From NCBI GenBank assembly GCA_016699425.1, contig CP064975.1:322979-386978 (forward strand): a DNA stretch of 64,000 bases. The letters run 5' to 3'. The notes under the pieces were generated by a model that had not been told where the DNA came from, did no database searches, and worked only from the letters and a program-made list of their open reading frames with translations. This document shows, in pieces, positions 24,229-62,977 of this stretch (the first letter of the stretch is position 1; every line of letters begins with the position of its first letter). The stretch comes from Candidatus Moraniibacteriota bacterium (GTDB taxonomy: Bacteria; Patescibacteriota; Minisyncoccia; Moranbacterales; UBA1568). Made by a program: the position numbers and the translations under genes.

Positions 24229-24250
24229 GAAGCTAACGAAGCTGCAAGCT

Positions 24251-25255: not shown

Positions 25256-25274
25256 TTGATGTTTATTCCCACCT

Positions 25275-27486: not shown

Positions 27487-27510
27487 TGTCTATGAGTATA
27501 TACGTACGTC

Positions 27511-28083
27511 TTGATAGGTGTGGTTTCGGGGTTGGTGCAAATAGCTTCGGCCGTACCCTATATTCGCAGTATCTTGCGACGTGAAACGAAACCGAATATC
27601 GTCTCTCAGGCTCTCTGGACAGTGATTCAGACCATCGCGATCATTGCTCAGCTGCAATCCGGTTGGTCTTGGTCAGTCGTTATCCTCGTGGCGACCACCA
27701 TCAATACGCTCACTTTTACGATTCTTTGCCTCAAGGGATATGGGTACAAGGGATATGGTTGGATAGATGGGGTATGTTTGTTCGGGGCGATCGGGGCATT
27801 GCTCGCGTGGAGAGTGACGGGCGAACCAGTGACCGCTCTCGTTATAGCGGTGTGCGTCAATATTTTCGCTTCCCTTCCGACCATCGTGAAAGTGTTCAGG
27901 TATCCTGAAACGGAAAATGCGACAGCCTGGCTCATGATGAGTGTGGCCAGCATCCTGAGTATTTTCTCCGTGACTAGTGTCAGTGTAGCGAATCTGGTTT
28001 TTCCGGTAGAGTTCTTTATCGAGAGCACCCTTATAGGCGGTCTCGCTCTGCTGGGGAGAAAAAAATTATTACAGCAAGGATAA
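27511..28083 (+). CDS. Polytopic membrane protein, unknown function (apparent TTG start)
   Basis: About 6 predicted TM helices. No in-frame ATG near the 5' end, so the ORF-track Met corresponds to a TTG codon. AT-richer. Confidence 0.4.
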   Translation: MIGVVSGLVQIASAVPYIRSILRRETKPNIVSQALWTVIQTIAIIAQLQSGWSWSVVILVATTINTLTFTILCLKGYGYKGYGWIDGVCLFGAIGALLAWRVTGEPVTALVIAVCVNIFASLPTIVKVFRYPETENATAWLMMSVASILSIFSVTSVSVANLVFPVEFFIESTLIGGLALLGRKKLLQQG

Positions 28084-28160
28084 TCCTTTCTCAAGGAAAA
28101 CGATGGAAACAAGGGATGTTCTTTCCTGAGGAGGGTGGTTTGCTATACTAAACATATTCT

Positions 28161-29069
28161 ATGGCAGCTATGATTGAACCAGTCTCTCCCTCTTCAGAAA
28201 AGAAAAAAGTACTCATCCTCGGAGCCAAGGGGATCCTCGGACAGGCGCTCGTCCAGGAGTTCCGTTTCTCGGGCTATCCGCTCACGGCCTGGGATATTGA
28301 TGAGATTGATCTCACCGCGGAGGCGGCCTCTCTCGCGAAGATCGCTGAGTTTTCTCCGAATATCATCATCAACGCGGCGGCGTACAATGCGGTGGATGCC
28401 TGTGAGGAGCATGACGAGGAGTATCGGAAAGCACTGACGCTGAACCGCGACGTCCCGGGATATCTGGCTCGCTATGCTGCGGAACATGGAGTAGTCTTCG
28501 TTCACTATTCGACGGACTATGTCTTTGATGGGACAGTCGAAGCTGGATACTCCGAGGACGCGATACCGAATCCGATCTCGCGGTATGGTACTTCGAAGTA
28601 TGAAGGGGAGAAGGCAGTCCTCGCGGCGGGCGGTATAGCCTACCTCATCCGTCTCTCCAAACTCTTTGGCGAACCAGCACATTCCGCGACCGCAAAGCGA
28701 AGCTTTTTCGAGGTGATGCTCGCCAAGGGCAAGACTGAACCGCGAGTAGAAGTCGTGGATGATGAGACGAGTTGTTTCACCTATGCGCCGGACCTGGCGC
28801 TCGCGACCCGAGAGCTCATCGAGGACGCGCCCGGCCCGGGCATCTATCACTTGCCAAACGAAGGCGGCGTGACCTGGTTCCAGGCAGCCTTAGAACTCTT
28901 TCGGCGAGCAGGGCTAGAGGTTGAAGTCAGTCCGGTGACAAGTGCTGGGTATGTACGACCAGCTCGCCGGCCCCACGCATCGGTGCTCATCAATACGAAA
29001 CGGCCGAAACAACGTCTATACACCGAGGCTCTGTCTGAGTTCCTCGAGACCATACTCTCGCCTCTTTGA
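28161..29069 (+). CDS. rfbD: dTDP-4-dehydrorhamnose reductase
   Basis: VLILGAKGILGQAL Rossmann motif, YSTDYVFDG. RmlD length. Confidence 0.85.
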   Translation: MAAMIEPVSPSSEKKKVLILGAKGILGQALVQEFRFSGYPLTAWDIDEIDLTAEAASLAKIAEFSPNIIINAAAYNAVDACEEHDEEYRKALTLNRDVPGYLARYAAEHGVVFVHYSTDYVFDGTVEAGYSEDAIPNPISRYGTSKYEGEKAVLAAGGIAYLIRLSKLFGEPAHSATAKRSFFEVMLAKGKTEPRVEVVDDETSCFTYAPDLALATRELIEDAPGPGIYHLPNEGGVTWFQAALELFRRAGLEVEVSPVTSAGYVRPARRPHASVLINTKRPKQRLYTEALSEFLETILSPL

Positions 29070-29087
29070 AGTAATAGGAAAAATTTT

Positions 29088-29150
29088 TCGGAAAAAGAAA
29101 ACCGCCCCGATACGTTCGCGATTGTTGCGCGAAGTATCCCTGAGGGCGGT
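29088..29150 (-). terminator. Strong intrinsic terminator for the minus-strand small-gene unit (possibly bidirectional)
   Basis: ACCGCCC-C-GATAC-G-TTCGCG-ATTGTTG-CGCGAA-GTATC-CCTGA-GGGCGGT. An 18-bp interrupted stem that on the minus strand is followed by UUUCUUUUUCC. Confidence 0.6.
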
Positions 29151-29164
29151 AATGCAGTCGGCAG

Positions 29165-29635
29165 TCAATTGACTGGCAGCTGAAAGAAGTCGATGCCGTA
29201 CGTGTAGATTCGCCCGATGGCCTCAAATGTAGCCGGAGGTCTCAGGACGCGTACCTCACAGTGCGAAAGAGCGCTGTAGCCGAGCCATCCGTGCCTAGGC
29301 TCGATAGCATGTTGCCGGATCACAGACCCGGTTATCTGGTCATTGGCGTTCTGGTCGATGATGATGGCATGCACAACTCTCGGAAGCCTTGGAACGCCAC
29401 TACCCTCACCTTCAATGATGCAAATGATGAGATCATTCGGCTGCGCGGTTCTGAGTACTTCCAAGTTCTGCGCCTGGTAGGTCGGTGTTGATACCACGCC
29501 GCTCTGCTGCCACATCTCAATACCTTTGCTAATACCTTTGCTGATGGCAAGTACTGCGATTGTCATCGCGGCAACGACACTCGCCATGATTAAGACCATC
29601 ATGAACGGATCTTTGTCACTAAAGCGTTTGGTCAT
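29165..29635 (-). CDS. Hypothetical protein, N-terminal single TM + ~110-aa extracytoplasmic domain (cassette 3 of tandem unit)
   Basis: GAGGAG 8 nt before the ATG, preceded by the repeated leader element. No recognisable domain. Confidence 0.5.
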   Translation of the reverse strand: MTKRFSDKDPFMMVLIMASVVAAMTIAVLAISKGISKGIEMWQQSGVVSTPTYQAQNLEVLRTAQPNDLIICIIEGEGSGVPRLPRVVHAIIIDQNANDQITGSVIRQHAIEPRHGWLGYSALSHCEVRVLRPPATFEAIGRIYTYGIDFFQLPVN

Positions 29636-29640
29636 GTTCA

Positions 29641-29720
29641 GAACTCCTCATTGGATGCCGGATCAATCCCTCCGGTATGGGTATTCAGTTGTTTAGGTAC
29701 GATTTCTGGATTTCCAGGCT
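29641..29720 (-). repeat. Leader repeat copy 1 (CUGGA-AA-UCCAG hairpin, ACCUAAACAA, CCGGAGGGAUUGAUCCGG hairpin, GAGGAG)
   Basis: Direct repeat shared with 30000-30095 and 30346-30432. Contains the stop codon of the upstream cistron. Confidence 0.6.
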
Positions 29721-29998
29721 ATCTGCTGTTTCAACCGGTACCACCAAAGCTTTGCCCAGTATCCACAACAGAACGCTATAAACGTACCGAATACCACGAA
29801 ACCAAATCGGAGGGTTGTGTTTGTCGTCTCTGGCGCGAGCTCACCGATGATGTTCCAGATCAGTATCACCACTAAGAACCAAGTGTGATGCAGCTTGGAA
29901 GCACCATGGTATATCGGTCGCACGGTGAGGTGCCCACAGACTCCGGAGAGTACCATGGCAATACCAATGGCGACCGCGGGTTGTTGAAGCAAGTCCAT
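29693..29998 (-). CDS. Small membrane protein, ~3 TM (cassette 2, diverged paralogue of cassette 1)
   Basis: AAGGAG 6 nt before the ATG, preceded by the leader repeat. Shares a weak pattern with the 30076-30345 product (M.L..., CG.L, W-F...LIW, AF..G). Confidence 0.5.
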   Translation of the reverse strand: MDLLQQPAVAIGIAMVLSGVCGHLTVRPIYHGASKLHHTWFLVVILIWNIIGELAPETTNTTLRFGFVVFGTFIAFCCGYWAKLWWYRLKQQIAWKSRNRT

Positions 29999-29999
29999 T

Positions 30000-30095
30000 C
30001 GAATCTCCTTGATCTACCGGATCGATCCCTCCGGAATGGGTTGTTCAGGTGTGACTATGTGGTTTCTGTTTGTCCTCAGGTTTTTCTGAGACCAT
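30000..30095 (-). repeat. Leader repeat copy 2 (CUCAG-AAAAAC-CUGAG hairpin, ACCUGAACAA, CCGGAGGGAUCGAUCCGG hairpin, AAGGAG)
   Basis: Same architecture as copies 1 and 3. Hairpin 1 has a different sequence but preserved pairing. Confidence 0.6.
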
Positions 30096-30345
30096 AAAGG
30101 AACGCTAGTGGCCCACCGATTAATATTACCGGAAGCTCGATATTCACATGGCTGATGGGTGACGATGTGGATACGAGGAGAACTTCCCACATCAGAACTG
30201 CCATCATGGGGAACCACCACCAATTCCCTATCTCCAGAGCGGGTCGCTTTCGCAGATTGTGTTCTTGTTGGACTAGACCGCAAAGCATGATGGTGATGAG
30301 GCCGAGGCTATCCATGAGGGTACAGATAATGATATCTGCAAGCAT
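30076..30345 (-). CDS. Small membrane protein, ~3 TM (cassette 1)
   Basis: AAGGAG 7 nt before the ATG. The C-terminal codons (LRKT-stop) run into leader copy 2. Confidence 0.5.
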   Translation of the reverse strand: MLADIIICTLMDSLGLITIMLCGLVQQEHNLRKRPALEIGNWWWFPMMAVLMWEVLLVSTSSPISHVNIELPVILIGGPLAFLYGLRKT

Positions 30346-30432
30346 TTTGTATCTCCTTGTTTCCCCCGGATCGGTCCCTCCGGTATAGGTGTTGAGTTCA
30401 ATTGTTCAGGTACGATTTCTGGGATTCCCAGA
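30346..30432 (-). repeat. Leader repeat copy 3 (CUGGG-AAU-CCCAG hairpin, ACCUGAACAA, CCGGAGGGACCGAUCCGG hairpin, AAGGAG)
   Basis: First leader of the unit, immediately downstream of its promoter. Confidence 0.6.
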
Positions 30433-30438
30433 ATGTGC

Positions 30439-30467
30439 ATACTACGTTTTATGTATTAATCTGTCAA
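30439..30467 (-). promoter_or_regulatory. Sigma70-like promoter on minus strand: TTGACA-17-TAGTAT
   Basis: Perfect -35 with a 17-nt spacer, driving the three-cassette unit. Divergent from the glyA promoter. Confidence 0.5.
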
Positions 30468-30488
30468 GGGTGGGAAAAGGGCGGATTT

Positions 30489-30517
30489 TTGCTATGATGG
30501 ATGTGCTTTGCTATATT
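30489..30517 (+). promoter_or_regulatory. Sigma70-like promoter TTGCTA-17-TATATT for glyA
   Basis: The -10 element ends about 15 nt before the glyA ATG at 30533. Confidence 0.45.
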
Positions 30518-30532
30518 CCTGACGACAGCGCT

Positions 30533-31774
30533 ATGCGACACGCTATCCTGAAAAAGGCCGATCCAGCAGTCTATAAGGCCGTCATGGGTGAAGAACAGCG
30601 CGAGGAAGACGGGCTCGAGATGATCGCGTCCGAGAATTACGTCTCGCCCGCTGTGCTCGAGGCACTGGGGAGTATCTTCACCAACAAGTACTCCGAAGGC
30701 TACCCGGGGCGGCGCTACTATGGCGGACAGGAATTCACCGATGCGGTGGAGACGCTCGCCATCGATCGGGCCAAGAAACTGTTTGGCGCGGAACATGTGA
30801 ACGTCCAGTCACTTTCTGGGGCGCCGGCCAATATCGCGGTTTACTCAGCACTGCTCGAACCAGGCGATACTATCCTCGGGATGGACCTCTCACATGGCGG
30901 ACACCTCACGCATGGCCACCCAGTGACCTTTATGCCCAAGATCTATCGCTTCGTCCGGTACAAGACAGAGCCGGATGGCCACATCGATTACAAGAAACTT
31001 GAAGCGCTGGCCAAGGAAGAAAAGCCGAAACTCATCCTGGCGGGATTTTCTTCATATACGCGCCAGCTCGACTATGCAAAGTTCCAGGCGATTGCAATAA
31101 AGGTGAACGCGTATTCGATGATGGATATGGCGCATATCGCTGGTCTGGTCGCTGCCAAGGTCGTCCCGAATCCTGTCCCGTATTTCGACGTGGTGACAGC
31201 GACGACGCACAAGACACTGCGGGGGCCACGTGGTGGACTGATCCTGTGTCGGCAGGCACTCGCACAGAAAATCGACAAGGCAGTCTTCCCGGGATTGCAG
31301 GGCGGTCCGCATATGCAGGTGATCGCTGCGAAAGCGGTCGCGTTTGGCGAGGCGCTCCGGCCAGAGTTCCGCCGCTATGGCAAACAGGTCCTGAAGAATG
31401 CCAAGGTTCTCGAGCAGGAGTTGCACAAGCTCGGATTCAAGTTGCTCTTTGGCGGGACGGAAAATCATATGGTGCTCGTCGATACGGTCGCCAGTCACGG
31501 GGTGCCGGGGAAAGTCGCACAAGAGCGACTTGATGAAGCCGGGATCACCGTGAACAAAAATGTCATCCCGGATGATCCACGCGGTCCGATGGATCCGTCG
31601 GGGCTCCGGATCGGCGTCCCAGCGCTCACGACACGCGGGATGAAAGAAAAAGAAGTGCGGCAGATCGCCCGCTGGATCGATGCTGCGCTCCGTTCCGAGG
31701 GCGATGTCAAGGTACTGGGGGGCATCCGAAAAGAGGTGAAACAGCTGTGCAAAGAGTTTCCGGTGTATAAATAA
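30533..31774 (+). CDS. glyA: Serine hydroxymethyltransferase
   Basis: MRHAILKKADPAVYKAV...LEMIASENYVS...PLP site HKTLRGPRGG. Start at ORF residue 49. Confidence 0.9.
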   Translation: MRHAILKKADPAVYKAVMGEEQREEDGLEMIASENYVSPAVLEALGSIFTNKYSEGYPGRRYYGGQEFTDAVETLAIDRAKKLFGAEHVNVQSLSGAPANIAVYSALLEPGDTILGMDLSHGGHLTHGHPVTFMPKIYRFVRYKTEPDGHIDYKKLEALAKEEKPKLILAGFSSYTRQLDYAKFQAIAIKVNAYSMMDMAHIAGLVAAKVVPNPVPYFDVVTATTHKTLRGPRGGLILCRQALAQKIDKAVFPGLQGGPHMQVIAAKAVAFGEALRPEFRRYGKQVLKNAKVLEQELHKLGFKLLFGGTENHMVLVDTVASHGVPGKVAQERLDEAGITVNKNVIPDDPRGPMDPSGLRIGVPALTTRGMKEKEVRQIARWIDAALRSEGDVKVLGGIRKEVKQLCKEFPVYK

Positions 31775-31802
31775 CAAACAACCGACAACAAACAACCGAC
31801 AA
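31775..31802. repeat. Tandem direct repeat (CAAACAACCGACAA)x2 immediately after the glyA stop
   Basis: Read from the sequence. Confidence 0.7.
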
Positions 31803-31824
31803 CGAGTAAATCATTTCTTTATCA

Positions 31825-31856
31825 GTTGTAGGTGGTAGGTTGTAGGTGGTAGGTTG
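31825..31856. repeat. Tandem direct repeat (GTTGTAGGTGGTAG)x2 + GTTG. Partially complementary (10 of 12, some G-U) to the upstream CAAACAACCGACAA repeats
   Basis: Read from the sequence. Together the two repeat blocks could form a long imperfect hairpin between glyA and rfbA. Confidence 0.6.
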
Positions 31857-31860
31857 AATT

Positions 31861-32652
31861 ATGAAAGGCATCATCCTCGCAGGCGGCAACGGCACCCGGC
31901 TCCTGCCCCTGACCGCTATCGCTTCCAAACAACTCCTCCCGGTCTATGATCGGCCGATGATATTCTATCCGCTGAATACGCTCATCGCGGCCGGTATCCG
32001 GGATGTGCTCATCATCGTCTCGCCGGAGCATGCCGGCAATTATCTGAATCTTCTCGGTTCGCTCCTCCGGAAACACGGCGTCAACATCTCTTTCATCGTT
32101 CAGAAAGAACCACGTGGTTTGGCGGAAGCCTTCATCCTCGGGGAGGACTTCATCGACAATGGTCCGTGTACAATGATTCTCGGCGATAATCTCTTCGAGG
32201 GGGATTTTTCCGAGGCGATCCAGAGCTTCGAGCGTGGCGGTCGAATATTCGCAAAGGTTGTGCCTGATCCCGAGCGCTTTGGCGTGGTGGAGTTCGACCC
32301 TGCGACCGGGACAGTTCTTTCAATCGTCGAGAAACCGATCGTCCCGAAGAGTCACTATGCGATCCCCGGACTCTATATCTATGACGCTGAAGTTGTGCGG
32401 ATTGCCAAGGGCCTGAAGCCGTCAGCTCGCGGAGAGATCGAGATTACCGACCTCCATAACTATTATCTGGAACAGGGGACGCTGGATGTTCGAGTCATCG
32501 CTGGTGCCTGGTTTGATGTCGGGACCCATGATTCGCTCCTGGATGCCAGTCTCTATGTCCGAGAGAAGGATTTCCGGGCCCACTTCCACCCGATGATCGA
32601 AGAAGCGCTCGCAGAATACAATCAGGAGTTCAAGCGGCTCGTATCTCTATAG
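31861..32652 (+). CDS. rfbA: Glucose-1-phosphate thymidylyltransferase (short form)
   Basis: MKGIILAGGNGTRLLPLT...sugar-nucleotidyltransferase fold. Confidence 0.8.
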   Translation: MKGIILAGGNGTRLLPLTAIASKQLLPVYDRPMIFYPLNTLIAAGIRDVLIIVSPEHAGNYLNLLGSLLRKHGVNISFIVQKEPRGLAEAFILGEDFIDNGPCTMILGDNLFEGDFSEAIQSFERGGRIFAKVVPDPERFGVVEFDPATGTVLSIVEKPIVPKSHYAIPGLYIYDAEVVRIAKGLKPSARGEIEITDLHNYYLEQGTLDVRVIAGAWFDVGTHDSLLDASLYVREKDFRAHFHPMIEEALAEYNQEFKRLVSL

Positions 32653-32677
32653 TGAATAAAGTAATTCCAATCATCTT

Positions 32678-33568
32678 ATGTCAAACGAATCACCCCAGAA
32701 GATCAGGAAAGCCATCATTGCTGTTGCCGGGACCGGTACGCGGCTGCTACCAGCTACCAAAGCGATGCCCAAGGAAATGCTTCCGATCGTCGATAAACCA
32801 GTGATTCAACTGGTGGTTGAAGAATTAGTGGCGGCCGGTATCGAAGATATAATTTTCGTCACTCGCTGGGATAAGAAGCCTCTTGAAGACCACTTCGACT
32901 ACTCGACAGCACTGGAAGACGATCTCCGAAAAAACGGCAAAGAAGATCGCTACGAGCAGGTCCATGCCATAGCTGAAATGGCCAATTTTATTCATGTGCG
33001 TCAAAAAGGCCCGTACGGTAACGGAACCCCGGTATTGTCAGCCGCCACCTTGGTGGATGATGAGCCTTTCGTCTACTGCTTTGGCGACGACTTGGTGAAG
33101 TCTACGACCTCCTTCACGAAACAGATGGTGGATGCCTATGCCGAGCACGGGCAGCCTATGATTGGGGTGCAAGAAGTGCCCATCGAAGAAGTATCAAAAT
33201 ATGGGATTGTGGATGCGGACCCGGAGACGATGCTGGTGCGGGATATTGTTGAGAAGCCGAAACAAGAAGAAGCACCATCACGCTTGGCTGATTTCGGTCG
33301 TATGATTCTGAATCAGGAGATCGTCGATATCCTTCGAGAAACGGCGCCGGGAAAGGGACACGAACTATGGATTATTGATGCGATTCGGAATTATATCCAT
33401 GGTGGTGGAAGGTTCTACGCCAAGACGATTGCAGATGGTCGGTGGATGACGACCGGTGACCCGTTGAATTATATGACGACGATTCTGACGTATGCAGTCG
33501 AGCGCCCAGATATCGGTGAACAGGTCAAGGTATACATGCAACAATTGCTGGATAATTCGAAAAGATAG
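32678..33568 (+). CDS. galU: UTP--glucose-1-phosphate uridylyltransferase
   Basis: KAIIAVAGTGTRLLPATKAMPKEMLPIVDKPVIQ GalU signature. Confidence 0.85.
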   Translation: MSNESPQKIRKAIIAVAGTGTRLLPATKAMPKEMLPIVDKPVIQLVVEELVAAGIEDIIFVTRWDKKPLEDHFDYSTALEDDLRKNGKEDRYEQVHAIAEMANFIHVRQKGPYGNGTPVLSAATLVDDEPFVYCFGDDLVKSTTSFTKQMVDAYAEHGQPMIGVQEVPIEEVSKYGIVDADPETMLVRDIVEKPKQEEAPSRLADFGRMILNQEIVDILRETAPGKGHELWIIDAIRNYIHGGGRFYAKTIADGRWMTTGDPLNYMTTILTYAVERPDIGEQVKVYMQQLLDNSKR

Positions 33569-33592
33569 CCAATCGGTTGATTTCTACGTGTC

Positions 33593-34312
33593 ATGTACTG
33601 GGCGTACCTCCTCCTCTTCATCGGCATGATTGTGACGCCTGAGCTCACGCGTGATGGCTTTCTGTTTTTCAGTGAGGATGATTTCGAGTCGCTGCTCATC
33701 TTTTGTTTCGGGATGCTGGGACTCCTCCTGTACCTCAGCAAGGAGTCAGCCTTTCTCCGGACGGTCCGGGAGAAGCTTTCGCTGCAGCAGGAGACGAACC
33801 AGATTCGGAAAGATCTCTCGCAGTCCTATTCGTACATTGGAGAGATGAATCGGCGCATCGACATCATGAAGCAAATGGTTGTCTCGCTTCCACAGGACGG
33901 AGTGCCCTTGTCGGAACGGAAGGGACGAGAGCGCTATGACCCGATCATCGAAGCGACCCGGCTCTTGGCCCAATCAGAGTGCGTGGCGCTGTATTTCGTG
34001 GCGGTCAAGGAAGGGGCTATCCTCGAGCGCTATGAGGTCGGGGATGGTGAGCATCGTGAAACCGTCCAATCGATAGACGGGAAACACCTCCTTGGTGCCA
34101 AGAAGTATCTGTGGGAAGAGGGACGGTTGTCCTTTGTCCGTTCACCCGAGGAAGCCGGTGGCGTCGCCGCATTCCTCGTCTTCCACAAAGTGAAGAACCG
34201 GTTGGAAGAAACGGGGATTTTCCAGATACTCGCGGCGCAAGCGGTATTCGTCCATTCTCTGAACGGTGCGACAGCAGGCCATTCAGACCAGCCTGACCAA
34301 TCCGCTCGCTGA
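33593..34312 (+). CDS. Hypothetical membrane-anchored protein (2 N-terminal TM + soluble domain)
   Basis: ORF with a hydrophobic N-terminus and no recognisable motif. Confidence 0.4.
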   Translation: MYWAYLLLFIGMIVTPELTRDGFLFFSEDDFESLLIFCFGMLGLLLYLSKESAFLRTVREKLSLQQETNQIRKDLSQSYSYIGEMNRRIDIMKQMVVSLPQDGVPLSERKGRERYDPIIEATRLLAQSECVALYFVAVKEGAILERYEVGDGEHRETVQSIDGKHLLGAKKYLWEEGRLSFVRSPEEAGGVAAFLVFHKVKNRLEETGIFQILAAQAVFVHSLNGATAGHSDQPDQSAR

Positions 34313-34320
34313 CCATCGAT

Positions 34321-35472
34321 ATGAAGATCGGCATCGATGCGCGTTTCTATGGATCGCTTGGCAAGGGGCTGGGACGGTACACCGAAAAACTCATCACGTA
34401 TCTCGAACAGATCCCCGAGGATACAAATACCTATGTGGTGTTTCTCCGGCGCGAAAACTTTGCGGAGTATCAGCCGGCGAACTCGCGCTTCGAAAAGAGA
34501 GTAGCGGACTATTCTTGGTACGGCTGGCAGGAGCAGTTTCGGTTCCCATGGCTTCTCTGGCGCTTTCACTTCGATCTCATCCACTTCCCGCAGTTCAAGG
34601 TTCCGATTTTTGTCCCGGCGCCGTTCGTGGTCACGCTGCATGACCTGATTCTGCTCCATTATCCGACGGTCAAGGCGAGTGAACTCTCTCCATTTCTCTA
34701 TTGGCTGAAGTACCTCATCTATCGTGTGGTCATCGCGCTCGCGGTAAGGCGGGCGCGAGCGATCATTACCGTCTCGCGTTTCACCCGATCCGATATCGAA
34801 TCCGTCTTCCCGCAGGCTCGGAGCAAGACCTTTACGACACTCGAGGCGGCTGATCCCTACTGCGCGTGGATGCATCCGCACGCTGAGCGAGCATTCCTCC
34901 AGTCGCAAGGACTCGTCTCGCTGTCCGATCCGGCGGCGGGGATCACTCCGTATGTGTTGTACGTAGGCAATGCCTACCCGCACAAGAATCTCCCGCTCTT
35001 GCTCCGAGTCGCTCCGAGATTTCCGGATATGCTCTTCCTTTGCGTCGGCCGAGAGGATTACTTCTATCGCACGTTTCGCGAGCAAGTGGCCGCTGCGGGG
35101 ATAGGGAACATTCGCTTCACGGGCTATGTCGATGATCGCTCGCTCGGAGTGCTGTATCGTCGGGCGAGAGCCTATTTCTTCCCATCGCTCTACGAAGGTT
35201 TCGGATTGCCGGGACTGGAGGCGATGAATGTCGGGACGCCGGTGATCGCCGCGCGGGCGGGGTCATTGCCTGAGATCTACGGTGAAGCGGCCCGCTACTT
35301 CGATCCAACCGATCTGACTGCTTGTGAGACGGCCTTGCGGAACGCACTTCAGTCAGAGGAGCGGGACCAGTACCGGGTGGCGGGGTTTGCTCGGGTGGCC
35401 CAGTTCTCTTGGCAGCGCATGGCGCGAGAGACGCTCCAGCTTTACGGAACCATCCCAACAAGGCGATACTAA
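34321..35472 (+). CDS. GT4-family glycosyltransferase
   Basis: C-terminal GT1/GT4 motif EGFGLPGLEAMNVGTPVIA... Confidence 0.8.
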   Translation: MKIGIDARFYGSLGKGLGRYTEKLITYLEQIPEDTNTYVVFLRRENFAEYQPANSRFEKRVADYSWYGWQEQFRFPWLLWRFHFDLIHFPQFKVPIFVPAPFVVTLHDLILLHYPTVKASELSPFLYWLKYLIYRVVIALAVRRARAIITVSRFTRSDIESVFPQARSKTFTTLEAADPYCAWMHPHAERAFLQSQGLVSLSDPAAGITPYVLYVGNAYPHKNLPLLLRVAPRFPDMLFLCVGREDYFYRTFREQVAAAGIGNIRFTGYVDDRSLGVLYRRARAYFFPSLYEGFGLPGLEAMNVGTPVIAARAGSLPEIYGEAARYFDPTDLTACETALRNALQSEERDQYRVAGFARVAQFSWQRMARETLQLYGTIPTRRY

Positions 35473-37571
35473 GGGAAGTCTATGCGAGATATCCGACGCA
35501 ATATCCGTTATCCAAGAGATGCGGCACTCCCGAGGCCAGTTGGATTGAGTTCGCCTCGTCCGATTCATTCGCCACCGGAGCGACCCACCCCCGATCAATT
35601 CGGGGATATCAGCGAAATGGGCGTTATCGACTCCTCATTTATCTTTTGGTTCTCTTGGGAGGATTGGGGATTGCTTCGATCTGGCTTCGGCAGGCGATCG
35701 TCACGCTGGGCACATCCGCCGTCGCCGAAACGAAGCTCGCCGTGATGAGCGCTCGGCAAGGGAATCTCGAGGCCAGCCGGGAAGAACTCAGTCGGGCGGA
35801 ACGGGATTTCTCCCGCGGGGCGCGTTGGCTCCGACCGTTCGCCTGGCTGCCGCATTCATTCGGACGAATTCCGGGATTCGCTCACGGTATATCGGCAGAG
35901 GCGCTCTTCAGTGCGGGTCGCGAGGGGACCCGGGCAGCGTTACCGATTCTTTCGGTGTTCCCTTCTATCCTCGATGTGCCCGATACCCCGAGTGATGTCG
36001 CGTCGCTCATCGATATCCTGGATCATTCGGCTTTGGCCGCGACCGAAGCGCACACTCATCTCCAGATGGTTCAACAGGCATTTGATCGAGTGCAACTCAG
36101 TGCGCTACCGGAAATTTACCGAGACGATTTCTCGCGCGTGCGTGACGTCGTCCCGATTGCGGTCGCTCTATTGGACGGCTATGCAGAACATCAGGCGCTC
36201 TTCCGGGAACTGCTCGGCGCCAACGGGCCACGAGTGTACCTATTCCTTTTCCAGAATAATCAGGAGCTCCGTGCGACGGGCGGATTCATCGGCAGTTATG
36301 CGCTCTTGGATGTGAGTCAGGGCCGCATCCGTCGTTTCTTCGTCGATGGTATTTTCAATCCAGATGGCCAATTGAAGGAGAATATCGTGCCGCCGAAGCC
36401 GATTCAGAAAATCAGTGCCGGTTGGAGCCTGCATGATAGCAACTGGTTTCCCAACTTCCCAACCTCGGCCGAAAAAGCAATCTTTTTCTACGAGAAAACA
36501 GGTGGTCCGACGGTGGACGGCATTATCACGCTGACGCCGGAAGTGTTGGGACGCATCCTCGAGATCGTCGGTCCGGTCACACTCCCGGAATACGGGGTCA
36601 CAGTTGAGACTGAGAACTTTATGCCGATCATTCAGGAAGAAGTCGAAGTGAAGTACGACAAGGAAGAAAATGAACCCAAGCGCATCCTGGGCGACCTCAC
36701 CGAGGCATTACTCCGGCGCTTCCTCTCCTTCGATCATCCGGAAGAAACCTGGGGATTGGGCACGACGCTCGCCACACTTCTGAACGAGAAGCATATTCTC
36801 CTGTATTCTCGGCACCCGGATGTCCAGGCGCTCATCAGCGGTGCTGGCTGGTCGGGAGAGGTACTGGCCACAGCGCATGACTATCTCTCGGTCATCCATA
36901 CCAATATCAATGGGTACAAGACCGATGGCGTCATCAAAGAGACTATCAGCCACGAGGCAAATATCGAAGCAGATGGCACCGTCCGCGACACGGTCTCTAT
37001 CACGCGCCAGCATCAGGGAGGCAACACGGCGTACGAGTGGTGGAACAAGGTGAATGCTGACTATTGTCGAGTCTATGTCCCCAAGGGTTCGACGCTCATC
37101 TCGGCTGAGGGGATGACACGGGAATTTCCTGAAGCGCCACTCGACTATCTCGCCCTCGGTTTTCGCCGGGATCCGGATATCGTGAGTGAAGAGGAAGGGA
37201 CCGTCATTGATGAAACGAGTGGCACCCGGATATCGGAGGATGCGGGTAAGACCGTCTTTGGGAACTGGGTGTATGTGAGCCCAGGCGAATCCGTCACGGT
37301 CCGCTATGTCTATGAATTGCCATTTCGAGTCGCGCTCGAAACGGGCATTGACACTCCGGCGACAGCGTATGCTGCGCTGTATCAGAAGCAATCTGGCACA
37401 GAAGGTACCGCGCTTATGGCGACGATCCGCTATCCGGAGTTGCTCCGGCCGGTTTGGCAGACCCCGGGAAATTTGGTACCGTACCAGCGGGTCTTCGAAA
37501 CGAAACAAATACTCGATAAAGACTTCTATTGGGGGGCTGTTTTCGGTCAAAAGAACTTGAACGGGGAGTGA
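35409..37571 (+). CDS. DUF4012-like membrane-anchored extracytoplasmic protein
   Basis: One TM (YRLLIYLLVLLGGLGIASIW), coiled-coil, then YLFLFQNNQELRATGGFIGSYALLD, which I recall as the DUF4012 core. The only in-frame ATG, at 35409, overlaps the glycosyltransferase by 64 nt, so the true start is uncertain. Confidence 0.55.
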   Translation: MAAHGARDAPALRNHPNKAILREVYARYPTQYPLSKRCGTPEASWIEFASSDSFATGATHPRSIRGYQRNGRYRLLIYLLVLLGGLGIASIWLRQAIVTLGTSAVAETKLAVMSARQGNLEASREELSRAERDFSRGARWLRPFAWLPHSFGRIPGFAHGISAEALFSAGREGTRAALPILSVFPSILDVPDTPSDVASLIDILDHSALAATEAHTHLQMVQQAFDRVQLSALPEIYRDDFSRVRDVVPIAVALLDGYAEHQALFRELLGANGPRVYLFLFQNNQELRATGGFIGSYALLDVSQGRIRRFFVDGIFNPDGQLKENIVPPKPIQKISAGWSLHDSNWFPNFPTSAEKAIFFYEKTGGPTVDGIITLTPEVLGRILEIVGPVTLPEYGVTVETENFMPIIQEEVEVKYDKEENEPKRILGDLTEALLRRFLSFDHPEETWGLGTTLATLLNEKHILLYSRHPDVQALISGAGWSGEVLATAHDYLSVIHTNINGYKTDGVIKETISHEANIEADGTVRDTVSITRQHQGGNTAYEWWNKVNADYCRVYVPKGSTLISAEGMTREFPEAPLDYLALGFRRDPDIVSEEEGTVIDETSGTRISEDAGKTVFGNWVYVSPGESVTVRYVYELPFRVALETGIDTPATAYAALYQKQSGTEGTALMATIRYPELLRPVWQTPGNLVPYQRVFETKQILDKDFYWGAVFGQKNLNGE

Positions 37572-37577
37572 TATTTC

Positions 37578-39239
37578 TTGCACGCGATGCGAATGCTACA
37601 GCGATTTTTTCAGTGGAGCGGGCGGCCAATCGAGACTCTCGGGGGCGCCGCTTTTATCATTGCTTTGGCTGGGGTCGCGAGCCGGGTGCTTGGTTTCATC
37701 CGGGACCGCTTGCTGGCTTCTTCGTTCGGGGCGGGTGATGTCTTGGACGCGTACTATGCCGCCTTTCGGCTACCGGATCTTGTCTATGGTCTCCTGGTGC
37801 TCGGGGCGCTGTCGGCAGCTTTCATCCCGGTCTTCACCGGACTCATGGCGCATGGGGAGAAGGCAAAGGCCTGGCGCTTGGTGCAAGGCGCGCTGCAATG
37901 GCTCACCGTGATCCTCGGCGGAGCCGCGGTTGTGGGCATCCTGTTCGCGGACCAGCTTGCGGCTTGGATCGCGCCCGGATTCTCACCCGAAAAACAAACG
38001 CTCGTCGCCCAGCTGACGCGCATTATGCTTTTTTCGCCTGTTTTCCTCTCGATTTCCGCGGTTGTGGGTGGCGTACTTGTTTCTTGTAAGCAATTTCTGA
38101 CCTACTCGTTCGCGCCGGTCTTCTACAATCTTGGCATCATCTTCGGTATCCTGGTTCTGTATCCAGTCCTGGGCCCGGCTGGTCTTGCGGTGGGGGTCGT
38201 TATCGGATCGCTCCTCCACGCTTTGGTCCAGTTTCCAGCCTTTTGGCGGAGCGGCTATCATTTATCATTTCTTCCGTTTCGGGCGAGCCTGCAAGACCCG
38301 GCACTCCGTCAGGTGGTGCGGCTCATGATCCCTCGCTCGCTCGCCATGGCCGTGAATCAATTCGGCCTCGTGATCGTCACAGTCTTTTCTTCCACGCTTG
38401 CTTCTGGCAGTCTGGCGGCCTTCACACTGGCTATCAATATCCAGAGCGTCCCACTTGGCCTCTTCGGCATCGCGTTCGCCCTCGCGTCGTTTCCGGTTCT
38501 CTCGACGCTTGCTGCCAAGCAGGATCATGAAGAATTCTTCACGGTCCTGGTCAGAACAACCCAACGCATCCTCTACTTCGTGCTCCCGTTGTCATTTCTC
38601 TTCATCATTTTCCGCGCGGAAATCGTCCGCATTGTGCTCGGGACTGGTGCCTTCAACTGGGAAGACACCATTGTGACCTTCACCGTGCTTGGCTGGCTGT
38701 CGATTTCGCTTTTCGCGCAGAGTCTCATCCTGCTGTTCGTGCGGGCCTTCTTCGCGCTTCAGGATACCAAGACCCCGCTCTTTGCCGCTCTGTTTTCCGA
38801 GGTTATTCATCTTGCGCTCATTCCCTTCCTCCTTCCGTATTTTGCTGTGGCCGGGATCGCGATGGCCTTCTCGGTCGGTGCGATTGTCAATGTCATTATC
38901 CTCTATTGGTCACTAAGGCAGCGTGTGTCGGTCTGGCGCGACTGGGAGATGATTTCTGGTATGCTGCGGATTGCAGGTATCGCCCTCGTCGCGGCTGCCG
39001 TGGCGCAGTTTTCCAAGGGCATCTTTGCGCTCACTATCGGCCGCCTCGATACCTTTGTCGAAGTCGCCGTAAAGCTCGGGGTCGGCGTCCTCATCGGTGG
39101 GGCGACCTATATCGCACTGTCGGCCTATTTTGCTCTGCCGGAATACCGGCAAGTGAAACGCTTCATTTGGTGTCGGCTTCTCCGCCGTCCCGAAACTATC
39201 GTCCTCACTGAGGATCACCCGGAACAGGGCGATTGGTAG
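37578..39239 (+). CDS. murJ: Lipid II flippase MurJ
   Basis: MviN/MurJ N-terminus ...VLGFIRDRLLASSFGAGDVLDAYYAAFRLPDL..., about 14 TM. Confidence 0.85.
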   Translation: MHAMRMLQRFFQWSGRPIETLGGAAFIIALAGVASRVLGFIRDRLLASSFGAGDVLDAYYAAFRLPDLVYGLLVLGALSAAFIPVFTGLMAHGEKAKAWRLVQGALQWLTVILGGAAVVGILFADQLAAWIAPGFSPEKQTLVAQLTRIMLFSPVFLSISAVVGGVLVSCKQFLTYSFAPVFYNLGIIFGILVLYPVLGPAGLAVGVVIGSLLHALVQFPAFWRSGYHLSFLPFRASLQDPALRQVVRLMIPRSLAMAVNQFGLVIVTVFSSTLASGSLAAFTLAINIQSVPLGLFGIAFALASFPVLSTLAAKQDHEEFFTVLVRTTQRILYFVLPLSFLFIIFRAEIVRIVLGTGAFNWEDTIVTFTVLGWLSISLFAQSLILLFVRAFFALQDTKTPLFAALFSEVIHLALIPFLLPYFAVAGIAMAFSVGAIVNVIILYWSLRQRVSVWRDWEMISGMLRIAGIALVAAAVAQFSKGIFALTIGRLDTFVEVAVKLGVGVLIGGATYIALSAYFALPEYRQVKRFIWCRLLRRPETIVLTEDHPEQGDW

Positions 39240-54078: not shown

Positions 54079-54145
54079 CCCGTTAGCCCTCTGTGAAATC
54101 AGTACGGCGAGTGCTACACTACCCAAAAACCCACCTCTCAAAAAA

Positions 54146-55989
54146 ATGCCCCGCTCCCTTCTCATCTTCCTCGCTCTCTTCATTCTCGCTACCACGACCC
54201 TCTCCCTCGTCCCCACCACGTCTCTCCACGCAGGCCTCATTCCTTGTGGCCTCTCCACCCCAGACCCCGATATCCTCGCTAGTACGGATCCTACTCAAGG
54301 CACATCCCGTTGCACCCTCTGCCACCTGTTAGTTGGCTTAAGTCGCATCGTCGTCTTCCTCCGAAACATCATGGCCGCAGTCGCGGTCGCCGTCTTGGTC
54401 GCGATGGCCATCATCTACCTCACCTCAGGGGGGAATGAAGGTCGCATGACCTTTGCCAAAGGAGGCATGTTCGCGGCTTTGATTGGACTCGGTGTCGTCC
54501 TCTTAGCCTGGGTCACGGTCAACTTCATCTTGACGCTTCCCATCATCAATACTACAACCGGTCTCATCCGTACCGGTTGGGATACGGTGAGCTGTAGTAC
54601 CACATCCCTCTCGACGGGAGCGGTGGCTACAACCACCCCCACCCCTAGTACGGGCGGAGGTGGAGCGAGTGGCACGGGTGGAGGCCTGGGAGGTGGAGGT
54701 GATCTCGTCACCTTGCCCAGAGATACATCCGGCGCGGTCATTGTTACTCCCATCGCTTCGCCAGCGAGCCTTGGTGTGACGGCTCCGTCTGCTTCGAGTG
54801 CAATCCTCTCATGGGGAGCAGTGCCTGGAGCGACCGGGTATGAGGTGGAACGCTGTACGGGACTGACCTGTACTGTCTTTACCTCCTGGGTACGTCCAAT
54901 ACCACGAGTTTTACCGACACCACCCTCACTCCCGGTACCAGCTATTCCTACCATGTCCGCGCGGTCACCTCAGCTGGAGTCTCAACCTGGTCGAATGTGG
55001 TGGGAGTGACGACACCTGCCAATCCTGGGAGTACGCCCGGGACCGGGGCGATGTGTCCCGATCCGGGGTCTCTCCAATTCCTGTATGGCAAGAGCTGGGT
55101 GAGTGATTTCACCCAAGCCGGCAACAACCTGCCCGTCCGTTGGGAAGTGAGTGTCGATGCCAACAACCAGCTCACCTATCGAGTCACCTGTCGGATGAGT
55201 CTCCTCGGCTGGGGAGCTGATCTGTCCCCTCAGATCACCGTCCCCATTGGGAGTGTCACAGGCAGCTCCTTCCAGGTCTTGAGTCCAGGGACCCAACGCC
55301 TGACGAATGCTCAGGGCAACTACTGTGAAGTGACCCTCAATGCTTCGATCCTTTCCTACACCCCAAGGACGAGTGCCACGATGACCTTCCAGGGGCAGAA
55401 CTTTGTCACGGGGGCGTGTTCGGGAGGGAGTGGGAGTGATGGGGGTGGAGGGACGGGGGGAACCAACTCCTGCTCGGCTGGTGCGCCAGGGGATCCGGGG
55501 TTTGGGAGTGGGACGTGGATCCCGAGTGGGATGACCAATGTGCGCGTCTTTGACCAGTCAGATGGCGGCAGTTACTCTCAAATTCCCGGTTGTGTCAATG
55601 GTGCCTTCGCCGCGGCCACGTGCCCTGCCACCTATAATGGGTATTCATTGAAAGGCGGTTCTGTAGCGGCGATTCGCTATATTGCTACCGGTCCGATTCC
55701 GACGACGGGACAAAATATCACACTGTTCGGTCATACTGGACTCGGTATTCCGGTCTCCACTACGGTTTCACTTTCCACCAAACCAAATGATTTCTCAAAT
55801 CCTCTCTGCACAAAGACCGGGGCAGGCGGAACCACACCGCCACTTACTATCGGTGGGACAGGTTGTCCCGTGGTCCCCGGCAGCCTCTACTACTACAATA
55901 TCAAGCCCAGTGCGGACTGTCTTGGCGGGAGTTGTACCTACAAAATCCAGGAACCAACTTTCCTCCAAGGCACCACGGTTTCCTGCTGA
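54146..55989 (+). pseudogene. TrbC/VirB2-like pilin module fused to Gly/Thr linker, FN3 domain and Cys-rich C-terminal domain. Interrupted by a frameshift at a GGG run near 54888
   Basis: Signal peptide, then PCG...C.LCHL...IYLTSGGN...AW two-helix pilin-like core. The FN3 domain (YEVERCTGLTC...) continues in another frame (TSNTTSFTDTTLTPGTSYSYHVRAVTSAGVSTWSNV). The second frame opens at 54844 and the first closes at 55009. Confidence 0.5.
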
Positions 55990-61270: not shown

Positions 61271-62977
61271 ATGAACGCTATCAAGAAAATCCGCTTTCAA
61301 TTCGCGGGGGTCGTTCTCCTCGCACTGGTTTCCGGTCTTATTGCCTATCCGAAACTCGTTTCCTTTGCCCCGCCGGTCGAGCGCTTTTTCTCGCAGGCAA
61401 AAGTCAATCTCGGTCTGGATCTGCAAGGAGGCATTCACTTGGAATATGCAGCGGATACAACGGATCTCGACACGAGCAAGCGAGATGATGCGTTGCAGGC
61501 GGCCGTCGATGTCATTGAACGACGAGTCAATGCGTTCGGCGTGGGCGAACCAGTCGTGCAGCTTTCGCGGTCGGGCAGTGAGAGTCGGATCATCGTGGAA
61601 CTTCCTGGTGTGAAGGACGTCGAAGAAGCGAAGTCGATGATCAAGGAGACGCCATTCCTTGAATTCCGCGAACTGGCTGGTCCGGAAGCGGAGGCACAAA
61701 TTGATGCAGCGAATGCACAGTCACAGGAAACCGCGGGCAAGATCCTCGAGAACGCGCTGGCGGGCAGTGATTTCACCGAACTCGCCAAGACCTGGAGCCG
61801 GGATCCGGGCGCCAAGGAGAATGGGGGCGAACTCGGCTTTGCCAAGTCAGGGAGCTATGTACCCGAATTTGATGCCGTTGCCTTTGACCCGAACTTTGCA
61901 ACAGGATCCGTGCATCCTGCGCTTGTGGAGACGACGTTCGGCTGGCATATCCTGAAGAAACTCGATGAGCGATCTACCTCGGCGGCAGACGGGGGTGAAG
62001 GAGAAGAACGTGAAGTGAACATCGCCCACATTTTGTTCCCGAAGTATGCGATCGAAGACTTTCCTCAGCTCCGCTACAAAGCGACGGGTTTGTCGGGGAA
62101 AAATCTGAAAGACGTGTACGTCGATTATCAGTCACAGGGCGTCGGGTCGCCGCAGATTGCACTCCGTTTTGACGAGGAGGGGACGAGGCTCTTCGCTGAT
62201 ATCACTTCGCGTAATGTCGGCAAGCCCGTGGCGATCTTCATTGATGGCGAAGTGGTGAGTCAGCCGACGGTACAGGCGGAAATTCGCGATGGTCAGGCGG
62301 TTATCACGAGCAATTTCACCCTGGCCCAAGCCAATGCAGAGGTGAAGCGGTTCAATGAAGGGGCGCTGCCGGTGCCGATCACACTCGTCTCGCAGCAGTC
62401 GATCGATGCATCACTTGGTCGCTCTGCCCTCGACCAGAGTGTCCGGGCGGGGATATATGGCCTCGCGGCGGTTTCTGTTTTCATGCTGCTTTTCTACCGC
62501 TTCCTCGGGTTCATCGCGGTCTTGGCCCTCCTCCTCTACTCGGCGATGCTTCTCGCGCTCTTCAAACTGTCGATCTTCACGCCGTTCCCCATCACCCTGA
62601 CCCTCTCTGGGATCGCGGGCTTCGTCTTGTCGATCGGTATCGCGGTCGATGCCAACGTGCTCATCTTTGAACGTACCCGCGAAGAGCTTTCATTTGGTAA
62701 ATCGATGCGCAAGGCTTTGCACGAAGGTTTCCGTCGGGCCTGGCCATCAATTCGGGACGGCCACTTCTCGACACTCATCACGACGATCATCCTCATCGGT
62801 ATGGGCACGGGCTTTGTGAAGGGCTTCGCGATCATCCTCGCCTTGGGCGTGCTCCTCTCTCTCTTCACCGCGGTCGTCCTCGTCCGGATCATGGTGAACT
62901 TCCTCTTTGCGGATTGGATGGAGAAACGTCCGTGGATACTTGTGACACCGAAAAAACTTGATACCCCGAAAAACTAA
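61271..62977 (+). CDS. secD: Protein translocase subunit SecD with an inserted PpiC/parvulin-type PPIase domain in the periplasmic P1 head
   Basis: SecD signatures LGLDLQGGIHLEY and RIIVELPGVKDVEEAKSMIKETPFLEFR. Between them and the rest of P1 lies DFTELAKTWSRDPGAKENGGELGFAKSGSYVPEFDAVAF...TTFGWHILKK, a clear parvulin signature (about nt 61700-61970). RND-type 6-TM C-terminal half. Confidence 0.8.
   Translation: MNAIKKIRFQFAGVVLLALVSGLIAYPKLVSFAPPVERFFSQAKVNLGLDLQGGIHLEYAADTTDLDTSKRDDALQAAVDVIERRVNAFGVGEPVVQLSRSGSESRIIVELPGVKDVEEAKSMIKETPFLEFRELAGPEAEAQIDAANAQSQETAGKILENALAGSDFTELAKTWSRDPGAKENGGELGFAKSGSYVPEFDAVAFDPNFATGSVHPALVETTFGWHILKKLDERSTSAADGGEGEEREVNIAHILFPKYAIEDFPQLRYKATGLSGKNLKDVYVDYQSQGVGSPQIALRFDEEGTRLFADITSRNVGKPVAIFIDGEVVSQPTVQAEIRDGQAVITSNFTLAQANAEVKRFNEGALPVPITLVSQQSIDASLGRSALDQSVRAGIYGLAAVSVFMLLFYRFLGFIAVLALLLYSAMLLALFKLSIFTPFPITLTLSGIAGFVLSIGIAVDANVLIFERTREELSFGKSMRKALHEGFRRAWPSIRDGHFSTLITTIILIGMGTGFVKGFAIILALGVLLSLFTAVVLVRIMVNFLFADWMEKRPWILVTPKKLDTPKN

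Follow-up and report, generated by a model that had tools for sequence, protein, structure and literature searches.

A multi-copy pilin-like gene of a Moranbacterales bacterium, fused to FN3 and Cys-rich modules and probably split by a consensus error

We analysed a 64-kb stretch of the contig CP064975 (hereafter the window) from a Moranbacterales bacterium (Patescibacteria, also called the Candidate Phyla Radiation, CPR) and found that the locus at 54146–55989, deposited as two open reading frames (ORFs), constitutes one gene, the product of which is an envelope protein of 614 aa. The gene is broken by the loss of one nucleotide inside a fibronectin type III (FN3) domain. Taken as a whole, the locus is probably best explained as encoding an adhesin-like envelope protein with a pilin-like core, in which the frameshift is artefactual. 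As for the 1-nt gap itself, the compared sequences make it quite likely that it arose through Nanopore consensus calling or polishing, as an error specific to the CCTGGG motif in a multi-copy gene of a low-coverage assembly.

The evidence for a single gene comes from the way in which the two frames share one domain. Frame A starts at the ATG at 54146, reads ...YEVERCTGLTCTVFTSW before the frame is lost and stops at 55007–55009; the first half of the FN3 domain closes this frame as ...YEVERCTGLTCTVFTS, and 40 nonsense residues follow up to the stop codon. Frame B opens at 54844 after the TGA at 54841–54843, encodes the second half of the FN3 domain (...LGTSNTTSFTDTTLTPGTSYSYHVRAVTSAGVSTWSNV...) and continues for ~300 residues to the stop codon at 55987–55989. 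Insertion of one base at the 54885–54886 site, simulated on the window DNA, yielded an unbroken ORF of 614 codons. In a Pfam search with the joined protein, PF00041 (fn3) was matched at 38.5 bits (cut-off 25) by residues 205–286 (profile positions 2–81 of 84), a match that spans the junction, and PF18895 (T4SS_pilin) was matched at 30.7 bits (cut-off 26.6) by residues 66–128 (profile positions 10–71 of 71). Because both families match the joined protein, fn3 across the junction, the two frames belong together and the split is real in the deposited sequence. From the letters alone, the original prediction had proposed one gene encoding a secreted pilin-like core of two helices, followed by a Gly/Thr linker, an FN3 domain broken by 1 nt and a Cys-rich C-terminus, and apart from the shift site all of these elements were found where it had placed them. 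The features of the gene are as follows.

54146–55009, forward strand: frame-A ORF as deposited (IPJ68_01865, QQR78998.1, 287 aa), consisting of real protein to residue 247 and then 40 out-of-frame residues
54844–55989, forward strand: open stretch of frame B, encoding the remainder of the protein; its deposited ORF starts at the GTG at 54997 (IPJ68_01870, QQR78999.1, 330 aa) and is devoid of a signal peptide
54146–54232, forward strand: Sec-type signal peptide, residues 1–29 (...TSLHA/GLIPCG), with a helix at residues 3–21 in the AlphaFold2 (AF2) model and a putative cleavage site deduced from the conserved A-x-A/G motif of homologues
54233–54340, forward strand: extracytoplasmic N-terminal segment with three invariant Cys (PCG ... 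C-T-L-C-H-L; C34, C56 and C59), from the homologue alignment
54341–54529, forward strand: PF18895 match, comprising helix 1, the short basic loop TSGGNEGRMTFAKGG and helix 2 (Pfam and AF2)
54560–54607, forward strand: conserved post-helix motif GLIRTGWDTVSCSTTS with the fourth conserved Cys, just beyond which short members stop (alignment, 19-locus survey)
54608–54757, forward strand: Gly/Thr-rich linker, containing the CCTGGG at 54685 where the paralogue IPJ68_05070 has one additional C
54758–55002, forward strand: FN3 domain (PF00041), interrupted by the frameshift
54885–54886, forward strand: frameshift site, one base lost from the C-run of TC(C/T)CTGGG, inside a CCTGG(G) motif (L001 alignment and simulation)
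55054–55419, forward strand: Cys-bounded module X (CPDPG...TGAC, about 122 aa), common to the homologues P0001, P0002, P0003, P0030, L022 and L026
55420–55467, forward strand: Gly/Ser-rich linker, where homology with L001 and P0030 stops
55468–55986, forward strand: module Y (173 aa, 8 Cys), an all-beta domain at the C-terminus, from a widespread family without a name (profile search, AF2), followed by the stop codon at 55987–55989

The exact position of the lesion was defined by the closest relative for which DNA is available, L001, which is the start of contig JBATNG010000034.1 in an Illumina/MEGAHIT metagenome-assembled genome (MAG) of Moraniibacteriota. Over 54362–55456 the two sequences are 95% identical (1096 nt), with one gap only. 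The junction codons are ACT TCT CTG GGT in L001 and ACC TC- CTG GGT in the window, and the missing base lies in the CC at 54885–54886, immediately 5' of TGGG; C/T variant bases at 54883 and at the gap position fall exactly at the junction. The shift had previously been assigned to the GGG run at 54888–54890. This assignment must be moved to the C-run, because the GGG run is equally long in the window and in L001. It had also been asked whether orthologues are single ORFs, and they are: P0001–P0004, L022 and L026 each form one ORF with the same layout, and L001 is intact at the site. Elsewhere in the window, no other frame switch was found among the 10 overlapping same-strand ORF pairs, which are distinct genes, and in the ~25 kb with syntenic homologues (tblastn against the loci L017 and L022) the frame is switched in the pilin-like gene alone.

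The part of the gene downstream of the break, read in frame B, shows signs of continued purifying selection in these comparisons. Between the window and L001 it has 12 synonymous and 4 non-synonymous differences (ratio of non-synonymous to synonymous rates, dN/dS, 0.11; 0.27 in the upstream part). It is also identical to an intact paralogue in the same genome, QQR78749.1, through module X, and module Y of the window copy retains every residue that is invariant in its family, including all Cys. The break would thus be of very recent origin, if it exists at all.

What matters most for the reading of this lesion, and had gone unnoticed in the original prediction, is that the gene belongs to a family of at least four paralogues, three of them frameshifted at the same kind of motif. 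CP064975 holds at least four such paralogues, the 5' ~1.3 kb of which (from the leader to module X) is almost identical; judged by their locus-tag numbers, they appear to be dispersed around the genome. We deduced the junctions of the paralogues from their deposited protein sequences and tested them by simulated insertions in the window DNA. QQR78749.1 (P0030, 746 aa) is intact and differs from the repaired window protein by three substitutions from residue 1 through module X, after which it carries a different module of ~300 aa (module W) instead of module Y. IPJ68_03950 (P0023, 270 aa) is frameshifted, reading ...CTVFTS and then PGYVQYHEF..., which is the third frame of the window; two extra bases at TC^CTGGG, that is, +1 relative to the intact sequence, recreate this junction. 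IPJ68_05070 (P0048, 180 aa) is frameshifted as well and terminates in ...GTGGGPGRWR followed by a stop codon, and exactly this tail is obtained from one extra C at GGC^CTGGGA, at 54685 of the window. Thus, three of the four paralogues, including the window copy, have indels of +/-1. At the 54885 site these are −1 and +1 and at the 54685 site +1, and each falls within the C-run of a CCTGGG motif. The C-run at the 54885 site has 2 bases in the window, an inferred 3 in the intact copies and an inferred 4 in IPJ68_03950. Only four CCTGGG motifs are present in the shared 1346 nt (54111–55456), and none of the 20 homopolymers of at least 4 bases in the same segment, which include G6, A7, C5 and two G5, is affected. 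We also observed that P0023 is annotated from Met76 only and that its post-FN3 linker differs in length from that of the window copy; an additional disruption may lie upstream in this paralogue.

Copies assembled from short reads are intact at both sites. The 54885 site is intact in L001 and in the ENA contig P0028, and the 54685 site is intact in L001, L006 and P0028, where L001 and L006 are Illumina/MEGAHIT assemblies. P0028 is a contig of 1102 bp with an adapter tail, and its protein ends in ...SLIHISEPTRPY; this terminal sequence looks like translated sequencing adapter, and we take the contig end to be an artefact. A scan of metagenomes of the Joint Genome Institute (JGI) for the exact pattern across the junction yielded no near-identical copies, and a protein-guided scan of the JGI metagenomes yielded only relatives at 56% and 69% identity.

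A real and very recent inactivating mutation, which would have left a fresh pseudogene or a truncated 247-aa product (the core and half of the FN3 domain) among redundant paralogues, is unlikely in the light of these comparisons. Redundant multi-copy surface-protein genes do tolerate loss, two other paralogues are frameshifted together with the deposited gene, and a truncated product would retain the complete PF18895 core. However, three independent events of +/-1 all fall in the C-run of CCTGGG, whereas random pseudogenisation would not be motif-specific. Moreover, nonsense substitutions, larger lesions and downstream decay (dN/dS 0.11) are all lacking, and every near-identical short-read copy is intact.

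The origin of the sequence provides a more likely cause. CP064975 is the circular, 1,217,328-bp MAG EsbW_18-Q3-R4-48_MAXAC.278_cln of the order Moranbacterales and family UBA1568, with 18.4x Nanopore coverage, 9.8x Illumina coverage and a polymorphic rate of 0.0043 (Singleton et al. 2021, Supplementary Data 3), and was produced by CANU assembly of Nanopore reads followed by Racon, two medaka 0.6.5 rounds and one Illumina Racon round (Singleton et al. 2021). With the basecallers then in use, CCAGG/CCTGG motifs accounted for the largest class of Nanopore consensus errors (Wick, Judd and Holt 2019, PMC6591954). The present case resembles these Dcm-motif errors in that all three paralogue indels lie in CCTGG(G) in a 2018-era Nanopore assembly, and differs in that CP064975 was also polished with Illumina reads. 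Short-read polishing is least reliable where reads of four near-identical, but not identical, copies pile up. Because the indels are motif-specific, occur in both directions and are confined to a multi-copy gene in an assembly with 18x Nanopore and 10x Illumina coverage of a polymorphic population, a systematic consensus or polishing error is indicated. A sequencing or assembly error was one of three options offered by the original prediction, along with pseudogenisation and phase variation, and is the best supported of them, on the grounds of the motif specificity, the intact short-read copies and the constraint on the downstream part. The idea of a homopolymer error held only in part: an artefact is favoured, but it affects the C-run of CCTGGG, while longer homopolymers are untouched.

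Several points weigh against an error of this kind. It is deduced from assembled sequences only, and Illumina polishing should in principle correct repeats whose copies match at the site in question. Although the window contains 160 CCWGG sites, no further frameshift is evident, and the error model thus has to assume that polishing failed in the paralogous repeat in particular. In addition, the study that described the motif dealt with Enterobacteriaceae, in which Dcm methylation is known (PMC6591954). Finally, indels of opposite sign at one site are unlike the usual deletion bias of Nanopore homopolymer errors.

These opposite signs could also be the mark of phase variation, with the C-run 5' of TGGG acting as a hypermutable switch through which one adhesin module is shown at a time (one copy ON and three OFF in the consensus). 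We regard this as quite improbable. It would be consistent with shifts of both signs at one site and a third at a second identical motif, with at least four paralogues that share their 5' part, the two that can be read past module X having different 3' modules, and with the relatively high polymorphic rate and strain heterogeneity of the MAG; moreover, an episymbiont would profit from variable adhesins. However, the tract has merely 2–4 C, while the G6, C5 and G5 of the same gene are stable. Known slippage switches rely on long homopolymers or multi-unit repeats. Phase-variable families such as the opa genes of Neisseria (CTCTT repeats) and the homopolymer switches of Helicobacter and Campylobacter resemble the present family in that surface-protein paralogues differ in frame at one short sequence, but their repeat tracts are long. 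Furthermore, no independent data set gives evidence of tract-length heterogeneity, and the sequence was assembled from Nanopore reads of low coverage, for which CCTGG is a known error motif. An elaborated form of the same idea is just as improbable: the paralogues of an episymbiotic CPR bacterium would supply adhesins anchored by a pilin core, among which the cell could switch. Real +/-1 changes of the C-run would recur, perhaps via motif-specific DNA modification or repair, and one host-binding module (Y, W or another) at a time would be shown on the pilus or cell surface. If true, it would represent both a new short-tract phase variation and the first adhesin system tied to Patescibacterial type IV secretion system (T4SS) pilins.

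The probability that programmed ribosomal frameshifting or transcriptional slippage joins the two frames is close to nil. The frames do overlap at 54844–55009 and jointly encode one domain, but both a slippery heptamer of the form X XXY YYZ and an A/T run are lacking at 54878–54890, and the orthologues and one paralogue are single-frame. The shift of P0023 in the opposite direction at the same site excludes this mechanism.

Beyond the break itself, the N-terminal core of the protein belongs to a family of pilin-like proteins. In the AF2 model, helices at residues 49–93 and 98–130 form a helical hairpin of modest confidence (mean predicted local distance difference test, pLDDT, 61). Invariant positions in the alignment include R100 and K105 in the loop and Gly and Ala positions in both helices, and a fourth, nearly invariant Cys follows helix 2 (W-D-x-x-x-C). 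The N-terminal motif with three Cys is present in 17 of the 19 related loci, and the core (residues 1–154) is 55–60% identical to stand-alone PF18895 proteins of ~150 aa from related MAGs, one of which is annotated as "pilin" by NCBI; precomputed PF18895 matches are likewise present in close homologues. The core had originally been described as TrbC/VirB2-type. Its two-helix pilin-like nature was borne out, but the affiliation was not: the joined protein gave no match to the canonical TrbC/VirB2 model PF04956 at E<=1 in Pfam, and hhalign of the core against Agrobacterium tumefaciens VirB2, with a manually entered VirB2 sequence, gave a probability of 0.35%. Searches of PDB sequences with the core profile gave no matches at E<=10, and Foldseek of the core model against PDB gave no meaningful match, although the model has low confidence (pLDDT 61) and helical hairpins are poorly discriminated by this method. 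"PF18895 pilin-like core" is therefore a more accurate label than "TrbC/VirB2", because no sequence relation to the canonical family is detectable.

The core shares with canonical TrbC/VirB2 pilins (F TraA, Agrobacterium VirB2) a signal peptide and a hydrophobic two-helix hairpin with a short basic loop. In TraA and VirB2, both termini lie outside the membrane. The canonical pilins differ in having only 70–120 aa, no folded extension and no PCG...CxLCH motif. A closer counterpart is the Patescibacterial VirB2-like family, which was surveyed with the same Pfam model, PF18895 (Quinonero-Coronel et al. 2025, PMC12102498): the window protein matches this model above the curated cut-off and likewise has a signal peptide and a hairpin, occurs in a Patescibacterium and has several paralogues in its genome. 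The pilins described in that survey are small, arranged in tandem arrays, ~25% identical to one another and often near virB4 (PMC12102498). The window protein, with 614 aa, an FN3 domain and two Cys-rich modules, is well outside the small stand-alone size (about 100–160 aa), and in contrast to the described arrays, its paralogues share a near-identical 5' part of ~1.3 kb, the one readable past this part having another 3' end.

We surveyed the architecture of 19 family loci in GTDB genomes and JGI metagenomes, nearly all of which are labelled Moraniibacteriota or Moranbacteria, and found an approximately even split between short and long forms. The short forms (150–160 aa) close just past the ...F(S/T)C.TTS motif. 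The long forms (approximately 9 of the 19 loci) have 257 to 1229 aa, three being cut at a contig end, and contain a linker, one or two FN3 domains and assorted Cys-rich modules. The statement that such proteins normally end after the second helix thus applies to about half of the loci, and the extension is a recurrent architecture of Moranbacterales, not a one-off fusion. Two other long PF18895 proteins, P0005 and P0008, carry different passengers, which in P0008 are ASH and Calx-beta domains.

The Cys-rich C-terminal part, which had been taken as a single domain of ~300 aa, actually consists of the two separate modules X and Y, and such modules are shuffled between proteins. Module X has no Pfam match. 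P0002, P0003 and L014 end after X, P0004 has two FN3 domains, two Y modules and a terminal segment Z of 45 aa, and L001 combines X, one additional module, Y and Z. The window copy, with X and Y, ends in ...TVSC, which is also the natural terminus of an unrelated homologue, P0053. A conserved terminal segment of ~45 aa (FPWTIxGxxYxSLSAxQAAFxPxCVNVNG...GFGPCxxGTAP) was observed after the last module in P0001, P0004, L022 and L026 and is absent from the window copy.

Module Y represents a family of its own. A profile search of 1.84 billion representatives (50% clustering) found 249 members at E<=1e-3 and 103 at E<=1e-10, in which the domain is almost always at the extreme C-terminus; the window protein (P0031) matched the profile at E=3.4e-69, with the pattern D..G.GTW.P...PGC.N...R...LS..P.DF...C...YY.N...C..C...E. 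Only 1 of the 93 scanned members contains PF18895. The other domains found are InlB-B-repeat-like, immunoglobulin-like, cadherin-like, Calx-beta, S-layer homology and peptidoglycan-binding domains and, in one member, TraN. Named members come from MAGs of Rhodocyclaceae, Deltaproteobacteria and Oligoflexia, and the family as a whole extends across CPR, Proteobacteria and Oligoflexia. A Pfam model is lacking; the family is sizeable and could be curated as a new one. The AF2 model of module Y is all-beta (pLDDT 74.9; predicted template modelling score, pTM, 0.78), and a beta-sandwich is predicted. Its best, but weak, fold matches are the botulinum HA70/HA3, the C-terminal domain of the Clostridium perfringens enterotoxin and CBM36, which are receptor- or sugar-binding beta-sandwiches. 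Module Y may thus be a generic extracellular binding-type module.

On the basis of these features, the protein would be exported by the Sec pathway and cleaved by signal peptidase after the A-x-A motif. The hairpin would then lie in the membrane with both termini outside and the basic loop inside, as in VirB2/TraA, and the four Cys may form extracytoplasmic disulfides. With this topology, the 460-aa extension would be extracellular and FN3-X-Y displayed; the FN3 domain may serve as a spacer, and X and Y may bind the surface of a host or partner. The protein may remain in the membrane as an anchored adhesin, or it may co-assemble through the shared core with the short paralogues of 150 aa and contribute the adhesin as a minor subunit of a pilus associated with a T4SS. 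Such joint assembly of long and short forms is suggested by the strong conservation of the core between the window protein and the short pilins of related MAGs.

If the PF18895 hairpin is a membrane anchor only, the protein would be a non-polymerising surface adhesin with a two-helix anchor and no link to a T4SS. We consider this tentative possibility, although somewhat short of even chances, almost as likely as the minor-subunit model. No T4SS genes were found among the scanned ORFs of the window, the gene sits among housekeeping and efflux genes, the core matched no solved pilin, and a 460-aa extension on each subunit would crowd a helical filament. However, the 55–60% identity of the core to the ~150-aa pilins, including R100 and K105, exceeds what a mere anchor needs. 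In addition, among the 1948 Patescibacterial assemblies with both VirB4 and a VirB2-like pilin, 1135 have the pilin gene close to virB4, and one cultivated species depends on a pilin array (PMC12102498, PMC12857230). This species is Candidatus Southlakia epibionticum, whose essential six-gene pilin array is mentioned in both papers with credit to Wang et al. 2023 (PMC12102498, PMC12857230). The assembly of an extracellular pilus by the PF18895 family is still hypothetical (PMC12857230).

Three negative results count against the proposed role as a pilin-cored adhesin. No VirB4, VirB6, VirB8, VirD4 or PrgI domain was found among the ORFs scanned across the 64-kb window, sequence and fold searches tied the core to no solved VirB2/TraA structure, and Foldseek of module Y against PDB gave nothing significant (best E about 0.01, template modelling scores 0.3–0.4).

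No adhesins were found in Patescibacterial T4SS loci (PMC12102498). The known T4SS adhesins, PrgB of pCF10 in monoderms and TraN and VirB5 in diderms, are comparable to the window protein in the presumed contact with a partner cell through extracellular binding domains, and one module Y homologue carries a TraN domain. They differ in being separate proteins (LPXTG-anchored, in the outer membrane or at the pilus tip), whereas here the modules are fused to the pilin core. No homology of the window protein to PrgB or VirB5 was found.

The nucleotide identity of 93–95% to relatives is restricted to the gene, from 54111 (the left edge in L006) to 55456 (the right edge in L001): homology to L006 begins 35 nt before the ATG, and homology to L001 ends at the end of module X. 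The neighbours differ by locus, being a MacB-like gene in the window, PilM in L006 and FtsK in L001, and PilM and PilC of L006 are only 26–32% identical to those of the window. This gene-only identity with differing neighbours suggests gene-sized duplication, conversion or transfer of a cassette. Contigs of four short-read MAGs of close relatives begin or stop inside the gene (L001:1–2337; L006:7141–7774; the end of L015; the partial P0047, P0049 and P0050), and two of these contig-edge copies break at the same residue (211 aa). Such breaks fit a multi-copy repeat that is too long for short reads to span.

In the window, the gene order is RecJ, RNase H, HlyD, ABC (ATP-binding cassette) ATPase, two MacB/FtsX permeases and the pilin-like gene, followed by the convergent PBP1A, NUDIX, ABC-F and SecDF genes; the permease QQR78997.1 lies directly upstream of frame A. 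In L022, a Moranbacterales-like MAG that is recorded as Bdellovibrionales, a homologue of 737 aa (9415–11655) is located ~2.4 kb from a RecJ/RNase H/HlyD/ABC/MacB block (14014–19153), on the opposite side, which may represent a recurrent linkage with the efflux-type cluster. The G+C content of the gene is 0.57–0.61, compared with ~0.53 in the flanks. A recently acquired island was considered and rejected, because the value for the gene falls inside the range found elsewhere in the window. Scans for promoters and terminators gave counts at the level of shuffled sequences. Long antisense ORFs lie over real genes, such as those at 54415–54954 on the reverse strand (179 aa, opposite the pilin-like gene) and at 768–1910 on the reverse strand. 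The long antisense ORFs of the window had no family matches and are best read as compositional shadows.

Other features of the window include a type IV pilus cluster, distinct from a T4SS, at 1982–9147, 45 kb upstream of the gene. Besides unassigned ORFs, it comprises the following genes.

1982–3205: PilC/T2SSF
3212–4594: protein with a CarboxypepD_reg domain
6754–7848: PilM
7718–8389: PilN

The exact PilM protein occurs on 13 contigs in public data, and its 90% cluster has 36 members. The SecD homologue at 61271–62977 contains a parvulin-type peptidyl-prolyl isomerase (Rotamase, PF00639/PF13616) at residues 143–233, between the SecD_1st and P1-head domains, and this looks like an unusual fusion. 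A cell-envelope sugar cluster at 23644–39239, which looks ordinary for CPR genomes, encodes RmlC, RmlB, RmlD, two nucleotidyl transferases, a GT4 glycosyltransferase, a 720-aa DUF4012 protein and MurJ.

In this study, we found that the pilin-plus-extension architecture is real and adds a modestly novel variant to the VirB2-like pilins of Patescibacteria. Such domain fusions are frequent in surface proteins, and the evidence presented here is purely computational. Long pilin-FN3-adhesin fusions and dispersed, near-identical paralogues with exchangeable 3' modules are not mentioned in PMC12102498 or PMC12857230. These results also have a bearing on low-coverage Nanopore MAGs, in which motif-specific indels can split multi-copy surface-protein genes into "hypothetical proteins" and thereby mimic pseudogenes or phase variation. 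The VirB2-like pilins of Patescibacteria attract current interest, since the one genetically tractable species needs a pilin array for its epibiotic life. Whether monoderm T4SSs build a pilus and how hosts are recognised are open questions (PMC12857230, PMC12102498). Pilin cores fused to FN3 and to exchangeable Cys-rich binding-type modules are concrete candidates for host-recognition molecules and suggest a testable model, in which short major pilins would be accompanied by long, adhesin-bearing minor pilins.

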